NCBI GenBank assembly: GCA_030295235.1
Contig: AP026128.1
Span: 682,001-746,000 of the forward strand
From: Fistulifera solaris
Taxonomy: Eukaryota
Direction: 5' to 3'
Length of the DNA: 64,000 bases
The notes under the pieces are model-generated. The model searched no databases. It was not told the origin of the DNA and saw nothing but the letters and a program-made list of their open reading frames with translations. A program made the translations under genes and the position numbers. Positions 28,830 through 38,267 of this stretch are shown piece by piece (the stretch's first letter is position 1; each line of letters opens with the position of its first letter).

Positions 28830-31800
28830 ATGTTTGATATTGACAAAAAGGCTGTCAAGCGAAAGCGACAAGTAAATGCGCAGTCGACCAAGGAGGAACA
28901 ACAATTGCAGCCTCCTCCTTCCAAGAGTGAGAATGAAACGGTGACTGATTTTCCTGAAGAGTTAAACGGTTCAGCCACTACCTGTGGATTATTCAAGTCA
29001 GCTCCTACGGTACACGATTCTTGTTCGCCCACCGAGTCTTCCTCGGTCGAAGTGTCAACTGCTACATCTCACCACGGTCCTCTTGAAGCTTCAGAAAAAG
29101 TGTCTGCTTTAGATACTTTTGATGAATTTACCAGTCGTAGTCGAATAAAAACGCAGCCGCAAACAGACAGCTCGGCTCTAGCTAGCGATCGAGAGGCTGC
29201 ATTACGAGGTGACGTCTCTGGCGACGCCTCGAACGTCAGCAGCTACAGAAAAGTGCCCAATACCAGATCAACAATTGATGTTGGCCCTACAGAGGCGGAA
29301 GATGCTTCACAATCAAATAAACGACAAGGAACCGCAAATGTTGAAGGATTGCCCGTGAACAGCCCCACTCCTCAGTCGCCTCAATATGCACCTCGAATAT
29401 ACCACAGGGATCTTGGATCTCCGGGTCTAGTTGACGGACAACGATGGGATAGCTCTGGACGGCGGAACGCTTCCGTTACATCGCAAAGTCAATCGCCGGA
29501 ATATCATATTGTCGCCGATCATGAAAACGCTTCTCTACTTAGTGGCTTGGACTATTCAATTGTCAGCGGAAGAAAAATTCAATTCGGAAGTGTTGCAGAA
29601 CAACCGAAAGCGCAGAAATCAAGCATGCCTACACTCGTCGACAGTTTCAGTGACACGTCTTCGAGATCTGAAGATGCACTCGTGTCTCTAGCCAGGGCGA
29701 TGCGAGAGCAAGCCGCTGTTATTCAAGCTATGGCTGGGCAAAGTAACGAAGACGAACTCTCGAGACTCGCTATGGAAAAAGGGATCTTGCACAACAAGTA
29801 CTTAGGCTGCAACAGGAAATTGAGAAGATGGGTGGGAGTCGACATAGTTCCATGACGTCTGTATCGTCGCGTGGGTCAGGTCGGTATAGCGCGAGAAGCG
29901 CCCGAAGTCAGCGTAGTTACAAATTTGGTCAACTGGGCCACATACCAGAAGTTGTAACGGCTGACGAAATGACAACATTTTCTTCGATACGAGGCCCGAG
30001 CGTTCCTGGTAACATGACGATCCCTAGAAACTCGTACCGCCTTGGATCCGTAACCACCGATGAATTGACAGAGGGCGACTTGAGCACGATCCCCAGCTTC
30101 GAGAACGCGAGTGTGTTTGACAGCGCCAGTGTTCGTAGCGGTGGTTCAAGAAGGAGTAAAAATAGTCGAATCTCTAACAGCAGTCGACCAAGCCGGGCTT
30201 CACGAAACAGTTTGATTAAAAGAAGTCGAATGTCCAAAGAAGGTTTCGAACCAGATCTCCCTGACTATTTACGCCCCGAGTCGCCACTAGGATCACAGTT
30301 TTGGCGATCGCTAGCGTTTTTGGTCACATTTTTATCCCAGACGTATGCATTCCTGTTGCCGGAGGTGGTGCAAAGCAAGCTTGGCGGTACGTCTCTTGAG
30401 TGGTCAACCCCCAGCATTTGCACAATGATGGATTGAATTTTGCTCACCTAAACCTTAAATTCACAGCGAGAAGGTTTTGCTCTGCATGCTCATGTTTCTC
30501 TCATCCGCGATGGTAGTAGGTGGTATTGGTTTCTTGCCTATCTATTTCTGCCGAAACAATGGAGTTTACTCAAAAGAAGATATCTGGCAACAGCAAGGCG
30601 AAGCATGGGTTACCATTTTCGGCAAGGTATACGATATGAACACATTCATTGATTCACACGTAGGAGGCCGCGACGGTATATTGCAGTTTCTCGGAGGCGA
30701 CGCTTCGAAACTATTTCCGAGACTACCCGCGGCTCGACTCCCGTCGTTTTGCTTGAACCTTGACAAGGGGGGAATATTTCGCGCAGAACTCCAGTCCGAA
30801 CTGCACGGAACTTACGGACCTGGATATTGTTACAGACGTACCATGTCACGATAGTTTGGTTGGAGTAAGAGAGGTCCGAAATAGGATGAAAGATTACAAA
30901 ATAGGCGACCTAGTAATCCCAGGCTGGCAACTGGGAGACGATGGAATGCAGTGGATTCGAATTGGTAGAAGTATTTATAATGTCACGCAGTACGTGAACG
31001 GTCTGATGTAAGTACAAGCTCACTATTGCCTTGCACGGACTTTAGTCTCACAGGTCTCGCAGAAACAACAAGACACAAGAATTCGACTTCGACGAGCAAA
31101 ATCCGAACGCATATCTTTCGTCTCCATTACATCGGCTTGTCACCATCAGATTAAACAGTGATGTCACCTCCATTTACGATCAGCTGTTTAGCACAGAAGA
31201 TTTCAAAGCGTAAGAATCAGACAAGTGTACCACTTTAACAATATTCCGATGGCTCTCACCACATTGTGTTACTTTAGGTGCCTTGATGAATTGTTTTACG
31301 AGGCTGACTACGACGAACGATATTATCCAGCTTGCGAGAAAATTGGAATAATGATGTACACGTTTTTATTTGTCGTTACGATTGTTCTCGGGGTTCAAGT
31401 TTTCTGTTCGCTCGTTTTCGTTTTTCGCAAGCCACGCACGTTTACGGCGAAAGATATGGAAGCAGGTGTAGTTGTCATGATGCCTTGCTACAATGAGGGG
31501 CCACACGAGCTTCAAAAAACCATTGACTCTGTTGTGATGACAAAGGTGAGACATAATAGAAGAGGATATCCATCGTGTCCCATTCTTCTTCCCCGCACCC
31601 CGCATTGATACTCAACTGTGTTTCTTTTCGCAGTACCCAGAAGAGAATCGAGTTATGATTATCGTAGCGGATGGATGGGTCACTGGCGCTGACAACCGAC
31701 TAAGTACTCCCGAGATTCTTTCCAGTTTGCTCGGTTTCGAAATGGACACCGAAGAGGATACACTGTTTCATTACAGAAGTCTGGGCAAAGTGCGGAATAA

Positions 31801-33417
31801 TTTTGCAAACGTGTACGCCGGGGTCTATGAGAAAGAAGTCGGAGAAGAAACGAAATCGCTTAAATATTTAGTAATTGTGAAAAGAGGCGGCCCTGAAGAG
31901 GCGGGATCCAATCGAGCTGGAAACAGAGGAAAACGCGACTCGCAACTTATACTTCTCGGTATGTACAACAGGATCCATCACAATCGAAAGCCGAGTGAAC
32001 TTGACATGGCTATTGTGAAAGGACTCTTCAGCCTCGGGCTGCCGGCTAAGGATGTTGAATATTTGATGGCCATCGACGCGGACACACGAGTTGACGAAAA
32101 ATCCATACCACATATGATTTATTCCATGGAGCACGACAAGAAGATTCTTGCGTGTTGCGGGGAAACTCAAGTCGACAACAAAGCACAATCGTGGGTGACG
32201 ATGATTCAAGTATACGAATATTTTTCTAGCCACCATCTGAAAAAGGCATTCGAAAGTTTGTTCGGTTGCGTTACCTGTTTACCTGGTTGCTTCACGATGT
32301 AAGTTTGATGTTGGGTACGAAGAAGTGTTTGAGCTACTTGTAACTGATCTGTTGCCATTCTTTTAGGTACCGAATTTTGACGACAGATATGCGACCTTTG
32401 ATTGGGCACGATGACGTCTACCAGGACTATGCACGCAACGATATCCCCTCTCTTCACGAAAAGAACTTGTATGAATTGGGCGAAGACAGAATGCTTACAA
32501 CTCTACTTCTCCGACATTTTCCGGCAATGCGGCTATCATTCGTACCGGAAGCCCTTTGTTGGACGATTGTTCCCCACAACTTGACTATTCTTTTGAGTCA
32601 ACGCCGTCGATGGATTAACTCGACCTTTCACAATATGTACGAGCTTCTAAAAATCCAAAGCATGTGCGGGGTCTTTCTCTGCTCGATGAAGCTCATTGTG
32701 TTTATGGATTTGTTGATCACCATGATTCTACCTGCCAGCCTTGTCTATATCAGCTACTTGACGTATCTCTTTATTACCGAGCCTCAGACGGTGGATCGAT
32801 TTGTCCTCATATTCTATGCAATTACATTCAGTCTTCAAATGGTATCGTTCCTGAGCCGCTCCCGATGGGATTACATGCTGTGGTTCCTTTGCTTTTGTGT
32901 CTTGGGGATTCCTGTCTTCTACTTCCTTTTGCCAATCTACGCATTTCTGCATATGGACGATTTCAGTTGGGGTAAGACAAGGGCGGTCGGCGCCGAGGAG
33001 AAAGCAGCACGGAGCGCCACCACTGTAGATGGAGATAACTCCACTCATTCGGACAAAGGAGAAAACGATGAGGACGACGAGGACGGGGACGAATCCGAAG
33101 GATTGTCCACTTTTATTTCGAGTCTTAATACCCCCTCCACTGCATTAATGTCGCATATGCACCGAGGTGGTAGTGTATCAGGAATGGAAAGGGAAAGTTC
33201 GTTCAGCGCATCATCCGATCGAAGTGTGAAAACGTGGAGTCCAGGAGATAGTGTCGGCAAAGGGCCCAATAAAGGCGATTCACTGAGCCGTTCAACCAAA
33301 ACAGCAGGCGACAACACGAATCTGTCACCTTCATCAGCTTCCGGTGTCTCGAAACTGACAATGCCTTCGGGAATCAATCCGAAGAAAGATTTTGATACAT
33401 TTCGGTTTTTAATCTAG
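28830..33417 (+). CDS. CHS: Chitin synthase (division-2 type) with a cytochrome b5-like domain; about five short introns and several frameshifts
   Basis: b5-like WVTIFGKVYDM...HVGG...GGDAS. Catalytic motifs MPCYNEG, IIVADG, GNRGKRDSQ, IDADT, CGET, QVYEYFSSHHLKKAFESLFGCVTCLPGCF, LGEDRMLTTL, SQRRRWINST and MDDFSWGKTR. Attachment of the Ser-rich N-terminal region is inferred. Confidence 0.9.
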
Positions 33418-33828
33418 AAATGCTCTTTTACTGATAAGCTTACAGTTTTCTACAACCCTCTTTGTAATCGTTGTTAGAGCTTCGCTCAAACTTGACGTCT
33501 CTAGCTGAAACAACTTCTTCAGCAGCTCAATTACCGCTACGATAAAAGGGTGTTTCGTTCACGTACTACAGGAACTAACATAATAAAAAGGTAAACTACT
33601 TCTTGATTCTACTTACCAGTGGCACTGTGACGATGATCGTGTTTTTCAACCAAAATGTTGCCGCAGACATCGTCAGCAAAAACGTATCCTGCTTTTTTTT
33701 TGTTGGCGTGGTGTCGTGTTGTGTCGGCAGGCGGATGATTCATTAAGGTGAAACAGTCAGCAGATAACGAGCCTTCTTTTGATAGTTTTCAGTGTGTCAC
33801 AAACCACCAGACAAACGATCTTGAAAGT

Positions 33829-34424
33829 ATGCGAAGAGCAGTGTTAACTTTAGCAACGTGCCTCACCGCCGTCTCCGCATGGACGACGCCGCAGAACTCC
33901 GTGGTAACACGGCAAGCGTTTTGGCAGAGTGCCGCGGCAGTCGCCGTAGTCGCCGCGAGCGCTCCGGTGCAAGCGGAAACTCTTCCGAATGGTGTTACGT
34001 ATGAAGTGAAGAAGAAGGGAGACGGCCCGCAACCCGAAATTGGAGAACTGGCGGCGATTCGCTTTGCGGCCTACAATGGCGCCAACAAAATCGATGACAT
34101 CTTTGAAACACCCGAGCCATACTACACACGCATCGGCAGTGGAGGATTGTTGAAGGGTGTCGAGGAAACTTTGCCGTTGATGAGACTCGGGGATCGTTGG
34201 GAGTTGACTATTCCGGTAAGTGGATGCCCCTTCTCGTTGCCGAGTAACCCGCATTCCCATTTCTCACCGGTTATCTGTAGAGCGAATTGGCTTTTGGTAA
34301 GAAAGGACGCCCCGCTTCTGCTGGAAAGCCTCGTATTGCCGGAGATGCCGTAATTACTTTCGATGTCGAAATGGTAGGCCTTCCTGGACGTGAAATCGAA
34401 CTCATTGAACTCATCGGTGATTAG
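33829..34424 (+). CDS. Plastid (probably thylakoid-lumen) FKBP-type PPIase; intron 34216..34280
   Basis: Signal peptide + VSA-W, then TRQAFWQSAAAVAVVAASAPVQA. FKBP core LPNGVTYEVKKKGDG...LLKGVEETLPLMRLGDRWELTIP|SELAFGKKG...ITFDVEMV. Confidence 0.85.
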
Positions 34425-34735
34425 ACAAGACAAGTCGGCATCAAAGTAGCAAGCGCAGACCGTAAAGTGTCACTAAAGGATACATTATAGATTATGAATT
34501 TATGATCATTATTGACGTTTGTTTCTGTATGAATAAGACGACCAGGAATTAGTAATTTTCAAGCGGAGCAAAGACAAAGCGCAAAGACGATGCGTTCTTT
34601 CGACTCTGACACAGCCAAGGTGATTATCTACACGTTCTCTTTCGGAAACTCTAGTCCGATATCTTATGAATCTTCACTGTCGATGAACAAGACACACGCA
34701 ACGTTGAACAGCACACATAGAACTCACCTCAAAGA

Positions 34736-37681
34736 CTACCTCGTGACGGAGTTTTGCAATGCTGCGCTGTTGGTCGACAAAAACTTTCCAAATCGCTGTG
34801 TTTGCAATGGCTCAGCAAGTAGCCTCTTGAGAAGCGCTTTTGCTTGTTTACCTTCGCGAAGACGGCTGAGGTCTCGCTGATCGCTGATCTCTTCTATGAC
34901 TTCGTCCTCATCCAAATCGATTCCCGCTTCGTCTGCTTTCTCGCGGAACCAAGCATTCCGTCGCTGAGTCTTTGATTGCATGTCTTCGGCCACAACAATC
35001 TTAGATGCTAGATTCACTCGTTCTTGAGCTCTGCTCAGGAGTCTACCGTCAATGTGCACAGGTTCAAATCGTGTCGACAGATCCTTCATTATCTTTGCAT
35101 ACATTTTGTCCTCGTCGGACGCAATCAGTGACACACTACACCCGACCGCATCTTGACCAACACCGCGCTGCACGATGAAAAAACAAATAGCACGAGTTAG
35201 AGACGCATAACGTAGTATTTCCACTAAAAGTCAAACTTCGTAGCTCAGACAGCCAAGGGAACAATGTTTTGTCTCTACATAATGTTTTCAGAGACTCTAG
35301 TCCATACACACACTGTGTTCATCAACGCCAAACCCTGCAAAGCTTTACGAACAACAAGATGCTTACCGCCGTACGACCGGATCGATGAACAAAGGTATCA
35401 ACTTTTCGCGCAGCATCGTAATGAACGACAGTTGAAACCGAGGGGATGTCCAAACCGCGCGCTGCCACATCGGTTGCAACAACGACAACATTCCCTGTAG
35501 CGTTACGAAACGACTCTAATACTTTGATACGTGCTCGCTGTAATGATGATAAATAGATAGCAACTTGTTAGAATCCGCATAAACAACTCATGGAGCACAA
35601 ATGTGTCAAAGGCTCAGAGATTGTTCACATGACCCTCACGGAAGCGACATTGACAAGTCTTTTGACGAGCCATTTGTCTCAAGAAACGGTTATTTTCCTC
35701 ACAGCCGCATGACAGAGGAAACTGGCATCCCAGCCAACGTACCTGTTGCATGTTTGCATGAAGCATTTTAGTTTGTATACCCAACGTCTGCAATGTTGTA
35801 CCGACACGCTTCACAGCGGCAATCGAATTACAAAATACCAAGCAGGGCCCCGATCTGCCTTCTTTCGTTGTCATTAAATAAGCGTACAAATGGGAATCCT
35901 TGTGCAACTGTGTGCACTTTATTTGCTGCAGGCGGAGACCCGGTGGCAGGCGAAATCTATCATTGGGGTCTTTCTTTTGCTTCTTCTTTTCATTGCCTAC
36001 GGTCACTTTCGTAGTTGGTTTCTCACTGTGGGAGAGGTCAACAATTTTTGTTTTTCCGCCTGCGTGAGCAATTTCGACAAGTTGAGCGATTGCCCCGTCA
36101 AGACCGGATGTATCAGTCCTCTTTCGCTTCTTGGATATTTCCGAACCGGGTAAAGTCAGCGTCGCGGAAAAGATGAAAGTTTGGCGATGCACAGGTGGGG
36201 ATGAAGGTAAACTAATCGCATCCTCATCAGACTCGGGCTCATATTCATGCTTTAACTCTTCTTCATATTCGTCATCTATGAGTTCCTTCACCTCTGCTGG
36301 TTCTTGGCGCTGTTTCGCCAACTCACTCAAGATATCATCACTTAGCATTGTCACTTTGGCTTCGCCTCGAATTCCTGGCAAACCCAACATGCGATCGCAA
36401 TCTTCTTCATCAACGTCATCCATGTCCTCATCGTCGGATTCTGTCATAGGGTTCGCTCGGTGTACCGCATCCAGAATGCGTTTCAATTGTGCGAACGACC
36501 CTTGTTGAATCATGCGATCAGCTTCATCCATGACCAAGAAGCGCAATTGAGATAAATCATTTAAATGAGGGTGCTCACGACTCGACATCTGTTGAAAGGC
36601 AATGAATGGTAAGATACGCGTAGAAGTGCGAGCCACAAATAAGAGTATAAAAAGTCTCCGACAACGATCGACTCGACATTGTTGGAACTCCGACGGATGT
36701 CTAGATTGCGATGTAATTTCTTCTTTGACATGAAAAGCACTCTTTTCATATATTACAGACTTACCAACTCCCACAGTCGTCCAACTGTTCCCACCAGAAT
36801 AGCTGGCCTATCGACATCCAGCACACGAGCCTGTTTGGCTTGAGCTAGCCCTCCCACTATACATCCAATCGATGCGAACGCCTTCCCGACCTTTTCAACT
36901 TGCAGTGCCAGTTCTCTCGTTGGTGTCAAAATAAGCGCTTGAAGCGGTGAATGTCGGGGTAAATCGGCCTCCAACAAATGCTGTACAATCGGCAGCATAT
37001 AGGCCAGAGTCTTACCCGACCCCGTGGGGCGGCGCCCAAGATATCGCATCGCCCAAGAATTGCAGCCGGAAGCGTTGCGGCTTGGATCGGCGTGGGGGTC
37101 CAAAATTCGTCCTTCAGAAGTGTATTGCAGATCTTTGGATGAAGTAAGACCCCACCAGTTGCACCACACCACGATGATTGCAGAGAAATTGCCTCCTCCG
37201 ACGTTTCGCCTGTGCTTGTGGCATTCTTTTCAGGGTCGTCGCTCGACGAATTGTTCTTACTCTTCTTCTTCTTCTTCTTCTTGGTTTTCTTATTTTTCTT
37301 TGCGTCAACCTTTGAAGAGGAAGTATCTGTTTTGAAGTCCCTGTCTTTCTTGTCCTCAACAAGCCCTCCTCCTGTATTTCCGTCGTCTTGCTTCAATTCA
37401 ACCTGCTTCTTTGCCTTCTTTGATGTCTTTTCTGCAATTTGTTTTGTATCTTTTTCGTTTGCTGATGAATTATCCAGTATTGTAAATGATGTTTTCCCGT
37501 CTATAATTTCAACTTTGTAAGAGTCTCCGCTGAGCACTTCTAACCCATTGAAAATGGCTACCTGTTCGCCGGGCTCGACCGGTAAATCTCTGGAACTAAT
37601 TTTGACGTTTGAGTCATCGTAATGATTCTTTTCCGAGTCTTCTAGGTCATCCAGAGAGACGTTTACTTTCTTCCAAGGCAT
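34736..37681 (-). CDS. DDX24: DEAD-box RNA helicase MAK5/DDX24; introns 36589..36764, 35538..35742, 35168..35366; frameshift near 37025
   Basis: Q-motif [54 protein letters not shown] and HRSGRTAR. The C-terminus [16 protein letters not shown]...LKRLLAEPL is typical of MAK5. Confidence 0.88.
35241..35330 (-). ncRNA. Intronic box C/D snoRNA with two LSU rRNA guides (SNORD53-like and SNORD52/snR78-like)
   Basis: Box C TTGATGA (35325-35319). Box D' CTGA is preceded by GGACTAGAGTCT. Box D CTGA (35248-35245) is preceded by GTTCCCTTGGCTGT. Terminal stem TGGC/GCTA. The guides are complementary to the conserved LSU sequences GACUCUAGU and ACAGCCAAGGGAAC. Confidence 0.88.
35599..35730 (-). ncRNA. Candidate intronic H/ACA snoRNA; target not assigned
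   Basis: Hairpin TTTCCTC/GAGGAAA, with an ANANNA box AGACAA 14 nt downstream. A second hairpin closed by GTCAAA/TTTGAC is immediately followed by ACA+TTT. It lies in a 205-bp intron. Confidence 0.5.
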
Positions 37682-38267
37682 TAGTCTAGTAACAATTCAG
37701 TTTAGTTACAAAGGATCGTCAAGCAAATGCATGGCAATTATTACTGTAATTTTTTATGAAAGCTTGCAGAATTAGTTCTGGATGGATGCAAATAAAGTCG
37801 TCTGTCAATCCATCGGGGCATCCTCTTATCTCGCTCATCGTCGTGCGCAGACATTTCCCGGGACTGGATTAGATTGAGTCATCCGATAAAACTACATTTA
37901 ACCCAGGTAAGGTTAGTAAATTCAATAACGACGCAGTGGATGTAATCGCTTCAACGACACTGCTCAAAGGCATCAACACGTCCACAATGGTAGAAAATCG
38001 ATATTAAAGCTTTGAAATAGATATTAAAATAATAGATATTCTATGATGTGCAGAGGCATTTCGATCGTAATAATTCCGCGAGCAGAGTCCGGGACTCTAG
38101 AGAACGACGTAAGGAGGTGATACAGGAAAAGGAATGTATTACGGAGTATCTGATACATGATGCTATTGGATGGGGATTGTTTCTCGTTCAATAAAACAAA
38201 TGGAAGGCCACAAGAGTACTGCTTCATCGGCAGATATGAAATGGCAATAGGAAATCATTGTTTCATC

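Follow-up and report, generated by a model that had tools for sequence, protein, structure and literature searches.

A probable snoR37-type double-guide snoRNA in an intron of diatom DDX24/MAK5, and a paralogue with a shifted guide

In human, 2′-O-methylation of a uridine and of a nearby cytidine in the large-subunit (LSU) ribosomal RNA (rRNA) is credited to two separate small nucleolar RNAs (snoRNAs) of the box C/D class, SNORD52 and SNORD53. The locus described here raises the question of whether one intronic RNA could serve both sites in the diatom Fistulifera solaris. The window is the whole 64,000-nucleotide (nt) stretch of contig AP026128.1 that was analysed, and all positions refer to it. 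A first-pass annotation, made from the letters alone, had placed a box C/D snoRNA with both guides in an intron of the DDX24/MAK5 helicase gene. The anatomy of this RNA (copy 1), the splicing of its intron, the identity of its host, the conservation of guides and intron among diatoms and the complementarity to eukaryotic LSU rRNA are all directly supported. We consider it very likely that copy 1 belongs to the snoR37 family and guides both methylations, and that a duplicate with a shifted guide lies in the next intron of the same gene.

Anatomy, family and host gene of copy 1

The elements of copy 1, read from the sequence, and of the whole RNA, supported also by Rfam and a hidden Markov model (HMM), are as follows.

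35241..35330, minus: copy 1, box C/D snoRNA of the snoR37/RF00333 type, double guide
35330-35327, minus: 5′ stem arm TGGC
35325-35319, minus: box C TTGATGA
35303-35292, minus: D′ guide GGACTAGAGTCT, predicted target LSU U
35291-35288, minus: box D′ CTGA
35280-35274, minus: box C′-like ATGTAGA, between D′ and the second guide
35262-35249, minus: D guide GTTCCCTTGGCTGT, predicted target LSU C
35248-35245, minus: box D CTGA
35244-35241, minus: 3′ stem arm GCTA

Box C, the two guides, D′, D and the TGGC/GCTA stem were each found in place and in the order previously described for 35241..35330 on the minus strand; the C′-like ATGTAGA had been omitted from that description. Copy 1 has the terminal C and D boxes, short stem (4 bp including one G-U) and internal D′ and C′ boxes of a box C/D RNA. 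Antisense elements of such RNAs span 10-21 nt directly before D or D′, and those of copy 1 form 12 and 16 pairs with the LSU of other eukaryotes. Across 11 aligned copies, the TG..GA columns of C′ are invariant, as are the D′ guide columns (11/11). The two-guide pattern has two matches in the window, the second of them 650 nt downstream of copy 1, and none in 100 dinucleotide shuffles. When random 200-nt pieces of the window were scored against conserved LSU, 2 of 500 held a complement of at least 12 nt and 32 of 500 one of at least 10 nt; copy 1 holds complements of 14 and 10 nt. Its folding energy is unremarkable (z 0.69), as is expected for a C/D RNA, and folding was uninformative for the window snoRNAs in general.

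At gathering thresholds, Rfam gave no match in the whole window. The first-pass annotation had proposed a covariance search, and in a permissive one the best match of copy 1 is RF00333 (snoZ157/R69/R10; 34.4 bits, E 1.6e-5), with both guides aligned to the consensus. RF00333 is the best family for both window copies; both lie below its gathering score of 55 bits and are not formal members. AtsnoR37 of Arabidopsis belongs to RF00333 and to clan CL00063, together with U52, U53 and snR78 (PMC3511168). AtsnoR37-1 is assigned Um2422 at the 5′ guide and Cm2366 at the 3′ guide, equivalent to human Um3925 and Cm3869 and, for the former, yeast Um2421; both Arabidopsis sites were mapped by RiboMethSeq (PMC8583080). 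The double assignment is also given by PMC8053127 and PMC6461891. A double guide on one RNA is thus already known and experimentally mapped in plants, and the first-pass annotation was right to doubt its novelty on account of plant snoR37, since AtsnoR37 is exactly this double guide.

The U guide at D′ and the C guide at D are combined in one RNA in copy 1 as well, with the same guides, order (Um2422 at D′, Cm2366 at D), register and 56-nt target spacing as in Arabidopsis snoR37. In contrast to the plant RNA, whose genes form polycistronic clusters, copy 1 sits in a DEAD-box helicase intron, scores below the family threshold and is accompanied by a paralogue whose D guide is shifted. Copy 1 is, as part of the overall reading, very probably a divergent diatom homologue of the snoR37 family that would work as snoR37 does.

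Other lineages hold the two guides in different arrangements. The consensus of Tetrahymena TtnuCD15 (RF02291; E 0.04 against copy 1) carries the two guide elements, one before D′ and one before D, in a shorter RNA; PMC6315972 makes no mention of TtnuCD15. In the permissive Rfam search, Caenorhabditis ceN44 and ceN28 showed one guide element each. Human SNORD52 (U3904/3925) and yeast snR78 (U2421) share the U target, D′ guide and clan of copy 1, but are listed with the U site only, and human has the C guide on an RNA of its own. The comparison table in PMC8583080 gives no Cm in yeast at the equivalent of human Cm3869. No snoRNA catalogue was found in the diatom small-RNA literature searched, and none of the open-access papers listed dealt with DDX24/MAK5 as a snoRNA host or with diatom or stramenopile rRNA methylation guides. 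Copy 1 adds a diatom to a known family, which is not surprising, but is a useful annotation since the Rfam threshold misses it.

The host gene and its introns, the latter read from contigs of four public runs (X1-X4) aligned to the gene, are listed below.

34736..37681, minus: DDX24/MAK5 DEAD-box helicase, coding span (Pfam DEAD and Helicase_C; protein similarity)
36589..36764, minus: intron 1, after GRLWEL (contig skip, X3)
35538..35742, minus: intron 2, after HANMQQ (contig skip, X4)
35168..35366, minus: intron 3, after HRSGRTA, host of copy 1 (contig skip, X4)
34525..34727, minus: intron 4, in the 3′ untranslated region (3′UTR), host of copy 2 (contig skips, X3 and X4)

The identity of the host, taken from domain matches and best similarity to named proteins, is supported as DDX24/MAK5, in agreement with the first-pass annotation: the exons match Pfam DEAD and Helicase_C, and exon 2 is 94% identical to F. 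solaris DDX24/MAK5, with diatom proteins at the top of the list, as fits a pennate diatom of the Fistulifera type. In a PDB search with exon 2, Prp28 was the sole match. The apparent frameshift near 37025, at the GKT motif, is an assembly error because all four runs carry one extra base at 37025 relative to the window.

Each splice joint is a single contig from the runs of one study, presumed to be RNA. All four introns have such a joint, with CT..AC ends on the contigs, and copy 1 lies on the host's strand inside one of them. The earlier coordinates of intron 3 (35168..35366) proved exact: an X4 contig skips precisely its 199 nt (a joint flagged 'between: not known'). Intron 3 has the motif GTAAG...GCAG. 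It had been called the last MAK5 intron and is the last coding intron only, since intron 4 follows in the 3′UTR with a skip of 203 nt that begins 8 nt past the stop codon. In the three snoRNAs of the window, the end of box D precedes the 3′ splice site by 76, 77 (copy 1) and 80 nt, and in the nearest copies of relatives by 76-105 nt; a distance of about 70-80 nt favours processing of intronic C/D snoRNAs. Depth over the introns is low in X3 and X4 and uninformative on snoRNA expression. Run X2 shows a variant at 35290, loose ends at 34659, 35243 and 35244, and a joint 35261-34642. A wetland metagenome contains copies of the copy-1-type snoRNA from other organisms, one with D′ CCGA, and the variant at 35290, rather than being an allele, may come from another organism's copy.

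Predicted targets and homologues of copy 1

Targets were predicted by the D+5 rule on LSU sequences of other eukaryotes rather than on the diatom's own rRNA. The set comprised at least 30 loci from prokaryotic assemblies, picked by their complement of both guides; the complement is present in all of them because they were selected for it, whereas register and spacing were not selected. The D guide GTTCCCTTGGCTGT points to the C of ACAG[C]CAAGG in 30/30 of the LSU loci listed, with 16 pairs including G-U. The D′ guide GGACTAGAGTCT points to the U of GAC[U]CUAG, with 12 pairs, 56 nt downstream of this C in 27/30; the spacing is 57 nt in one of the remaining loci, and in two the best site lies elsewhere. 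The 56-nt spacing equals 2422 minus 2366 in Arabidopsis and 3925 minus 3869 in human. The mapping therefore supports a predicted U target equivalent to yeast Um2421, Arabidopsis Um2422 and human Um3925 (old 3904), and a predicted C target equivalent to Arabidopsis Cm2366 and human Cm3869 (old 3848). Both motifs had been foreseen in the first-pass annotation as GAC[Um]CUAG and ACAG[Cm]CAAGG, and the human and yeast equivalents named there (SNORD52, SNORD53 and snR78) fit the published site tables and the spacing.

The five LSU loci tested are all eukaryotic LSU (RF02543). The presence of such ribosomal DNA (rDNA) in at least 30 prokaryotic assemblies (L142-L171) is contamination, and L143 and L168 include group I introns. 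Searches of viral contigs for rRNA gave no loci in one case and, in the other, 16 loci without an Rfam match.

A metagenome scan for the two-guide pattern gave at least 125 loci, 80 of them with full flanks and few with an assigned lineage. Among the matches listed (n=125), 111 loci hold unshifted copies only, three hold shifted copies only, one holds both and ten hold neither. Box D has the register of copy 1 in 77 of their 91 distinct cores, lies 2 nt further on in four and is missing, by the rule applied, from ten; these ten were left out, although one of them, in L050, looks real (ATGA). The pattern also missed an intron-3 copy with D′ CTAA in L067, which was recovered later. With an HMM built from 75 unshifted homologues outside MAK5, which share the guides by selection, copy 1 reaches E 6.8e-13 and copy 2 E 2.7e-9, whereas the match that follows has E 4.8.

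Five of the 125 loci listed match MAK5, with L029, L048 and L077 nearest to centric and L037 and L067 nearest to pennate proteins. A snoR37-type RNA lies in the intron after HRxGRTA in all five, and two such RNAs lie in this intron in L048, whose upstream part is incomplete. The guides are kept in this orthologous intron and the other intron sequence differs. A hairpin separates D′ from C′ in many homologues, and its loop, GGTAGTAG, complements the LSU just upstream of the C target with one G-U (L001, L003, L018, L025, L029, L031, L048, L049, L058, L060, L077, L114, L115 and intron 3 of L067). The loop is likely an accessory pairing element and is absent from both window copies.

By analogy with the established C/D mechanism and with the Arabidopsis data, copy 1 would be transcribed within the MAK5 pre-mRNA. 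Intron 3 would be spliced out and debranched, exonucleases would trim it as far as the C/D kink-turn, and the RNA so released would bind Snu13, Nop56, Nop58 and fibrillarin. The mature RNA would be expected to accumulate in the diatom as part of a small nucleolar ribonucleoprotein, in which the D′ guide would direct 2′-O-methylation of the U equivalent to yeast U2421, and the D guide would do so for the C that lies 56 nt upstream (Arabidopsis C2366, human C3869). The tandem duplicate in intron 4 keeps the U guide, and two extra bases before its box D would move the second target to an A. Yeast Mak5 works on early pre-60S particles (PMC3846774). Copy 1 would be co-expressed with this 60S factor because it lies in a MAK5 intron. 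snoRNAs commonly sit in ribosome-related genes.

Several points weigh against this account of copy 1. The splice joints are single contigs presumed to be RNA, and processing and methylation rest on analogy, since contigs cannot show a mature snoRNA. The Rfam score of copy 1 falls short of the RF00333 gathering score, the RNA lies on a long branch in a tree of 11 copies, and it lacks the internal TAGTAG loop found in 15/81 distinct homologues. The target mapping uses contaminating rDNA of other species chosen by guide complement, and predicted pairing does not always yield modification (bioRxiv 2021.07.15.452550).

Two alternatives for copy 1 were weighed against these facts. That it is a chance match in an intron, or a relic that is no longer expressed, would agree with the empty Rfam result at gathering scores and with the folding energy, although the latter is expected of a C/D RNA. 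The empty shuffles, the gap between the HMM match and the next, unrelated one, and the retention of the guides in the orthologous intron of five diatoms, where other intron sequence has diverged, make this extremely improbable. A subtler alternative grants that the RNA works but with one catalytic guide, for example the D guide for C, so that the U would be served by copy 2 or another snoRNA and the other element would be a chaperone or accessory. The U guide is common to both window copies, one of which may be redundant, and boxes C′ and D′ are often degenerate. Non-productive antisense elements are documented, and the overlap of human SNORD53 and SNORD92 correlates with hypomethylated A3846 and C3848 (bioRxiv 2021.07.15.452550). 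Set against this, copy 1 retains two intact guides together with a canonical D′ CTGA, the D′ guide columns do not vary among the aligned copies, and AtsnoR37 is assigned both sites (PMC8583080; PMC8053127). We regard a single catalytic guide as improbable, and favour copy 1 as a double guide of the snoR37 type.

The paralogue with a shifted guide in intron 4

The gene had been pictured with a single snoRNA, and a paralogue in its 3′UTR intron was overlooked.

34600..34683, minus: copy 2, paralogue snoRNA in intron 4 (Rfam, HMM)

Copy 2 (27.4 bits, E 0.0015 against RF00333) has a 5-bp Watson-Crick stem TCGAC/GTCGA, box C GTGAAGA, D′ CCGA and box D CAGA. Its D′ guide is identical to the U guide of copy 1, and its 3′ guide CCTTGGCTGTGT is shifted 2 nt by two extra bases before box D. 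The extra TG lengthens the rRNA pairing, and the fifth base of the D guide falls on the A that lies two nt 5′ of the C served by SNORD53: the target is CCAC[A]GCC in 27/30 of the LSU loci listed, with 11 pairs. The predicted targets of copy 2 are thus the U of copy 1 and an A equivalent to human Am3867/3846, the SNORD92 site (PMC9941101).

Human SNORD53, SNORD53B and SNORD92 form one family with three members in one host gene (PMC8178906), and SNORD92 and SNORD53 overlap on the rRNA (bioRxiv 2021.07.15.452550). SNORD53 (C3848) and SNORD92 (A3846), both of RF00325, act two nt apart and so mirror copies 1 and 2 in MAK5, but the human RNAs are not credited with a U3904 guide and lie in a different host gene, WDR43. 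RF00325 does not appear among the Rfam matches for copy 2, of which two same-clan overlaps are hidden.

A shifted 3′ guide also occurs in L029, L036, L037 and L067. In L037 and L067, as in the window, an unshifted copy lies in intron 3 and a shifted one in a fourth intron, which by splice motifs lies 7 codons before the stop in L037 and 23 nt after it in L067. L029 has a shifted copy only, in intron 3, and neither L077 nor L048 has one. A single clade of shifted copies gives p-AU 0.164 in the tree of 11 copies, which has no supported branch. Among the papers listed on precedents for a guide shift, none was on point.

Copy 2 might instead be a decaying duplicate in which the 2-nt shift is neutral damage, so that copy 1 alone works and the A is not methylated. 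All three of its boxes are off consensus, the shifted register is rare among the distinct cores of the matches listed (4 of 91, against 77 unshifted), and the plant site tables in PMC11542601, which cover Arabidopsis, tomato and tobacco, do not list an A two nt before the C as methylated; human Am3867 is paired there with Arabidopsis Am2362, four nt before the C. Decay would sit poorly, however, with a TG insertion that restores 11 pairs with the rRNA, with the Watson-Crick stem and the splicing of intron 4, with the recurrence of the shift in four other loci, two of which, like the window, have it in a terminal intron of MAK5, and with the methylation of the equivalent A in human by SNORD92 (PMC9941101). 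We judge decay unlikely and prefer a working copy 2 with a displaced second target. Copies 1 and 2 form a natural pair on which to test how duplication and a 2-nt register shift may give rise to a new site of rRNA methylation.

Two observations stand beside copy 2. Intron 4 starts so near the stop codon (8 nt past it, and 23 nt in L067) that under the 50-nt rule junction-dependent decay would be escaped. At L036:2150-2900, at least four C/D-like RNAs are clustered outside MAK5, three with LSU complements and one a shifted snoR37 copy; the cluster lies beside a kinase gene of a eukaryote with 57% GC.

Other introns of the gene and its neighbourhood

A further C/D snoRNA, also overlooked in the first-pass account of this gene, lies in intron 2.

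35611..35706, minus: second C/D snoRNA, hosted by intron 2, with box C GTGAGGA, D guide GTGAACAATCT and box D CTGA

The guide GTGAACAATCT and box D are kept in the same intron in all four MAK5 loci that hold it (L029, L037, L067 and L077). By the D+5 rule the guide points to GGAU[U]GUUCAC in 11 of 12 long LSU loci. This A-loop target lies 554-558 nt from the C in four LSU loci, two of them from one contig, and 519-1492 nt from it in the rest, a spread that we attribute to insertions and group I introns. The distance from the C to Arabidopsis Um2922, the equivalent of yeast Um2921, is 556 nt, and the intron-2 RNA is a candidate guide for this U. Yeast Um2921 is made by snR52 or Spb1, human uses FTSJ3 and no Arabidopsis guide is reported in the data of PMC11542601, while the Dictyostelium guide for the site is CD25 (PMC8817022). 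The intron-2 guide would share its U with snR52 and CD25, but the RNA has no Rfam match to snR52, nor any Rfam match better than E 0.19. It may represent a snoRNA guide for the universally conserved methylation of the A loop, in a lineage distant from yeast.

Two other readings of the intron-2 RNA were rejected. A second guide, CAATGTCGCT, does not recur in any of the four orthologous introns, and no conserved LSU sequence is complementary to it. Identity of the D guide with plant snoR64 fails because the offset of 554-558 nt in the four loci fits Arabidopsis 2922 and not 2884.

In relatives, intron 1 also holds a C/D RNA, with the guide TTGCACGTCAGT-CTGA, in L029 (minus), L037 (plus), L067 (minus) and L077 (minus). 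The guide points at CUG[A]CGUGC, which in six LSU loci lies some 1.4-1.9 kb upstream; this would fit Arabidopsis Am885 and yeast Am876 (snoR72Y/snR72), sites listed in PMC8053127, PMC3511168 and PMC11542601. By comparison of the sequences, intron 1 of the window (36589..36764) has lost the TTGCACGTCAGT guide: it holds no LSU complement of at least 9 nt, no Rfam match under E 2.5 and no stable fold. Degenerate box-like words (AAGAAGA and two CGGA) and a hairpin near 36640-36700 are seen in it.

Taken together, these introns suggest a wider picture, for and against which we see even chances: diatom MAK5 would be a conserved LSU-guide host with four slots, in which a duplication in pennates into an additional terminal intron and a 2-nt slide gave a working A guide, in independent parallel to SNORD53/SNORD92; the double guide would be ancestral to SNORD52 and SNORD53, and an A-loop guide would sit in the same gene. 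If true, the vertebrate SNORD53/SNORD92 pair would have been repeated independently in another host gene. The double guide of plants, ciliates and diatoms would then likely be the older one, with SNORD52 and SNORD53 derived from it by a split, and the A-loop uridine, for which no guide is reported in plants, would be served by a snoRNA from MAK5. The shifted paralogue and the A-loop guide are in this respect worth more than copy 1 itself.

Some minor features flank the gene. Just upstream of the MAK5 start (37682-37777), one X1 contig skips 94 nt with non-canonical ends, probably a deletion in a second gene copy, about 7% divergent, that is visible throughout the runs. By eye, 33739-34353 on the plus strand resembles a gene for an FKBP-type peptidyl-prolyl isomerase whose N-terminus looks like a plastid-targeting one; it runs convergently to the MAK5 3′UTR. 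Two genes downstream of MAK5, at 29747-33417 on the plus strand, chitin-synthase-like exons are seen in the same way, with a QxRRW-like motif (SQRRRW) and a cytochrome b5-like stretch.

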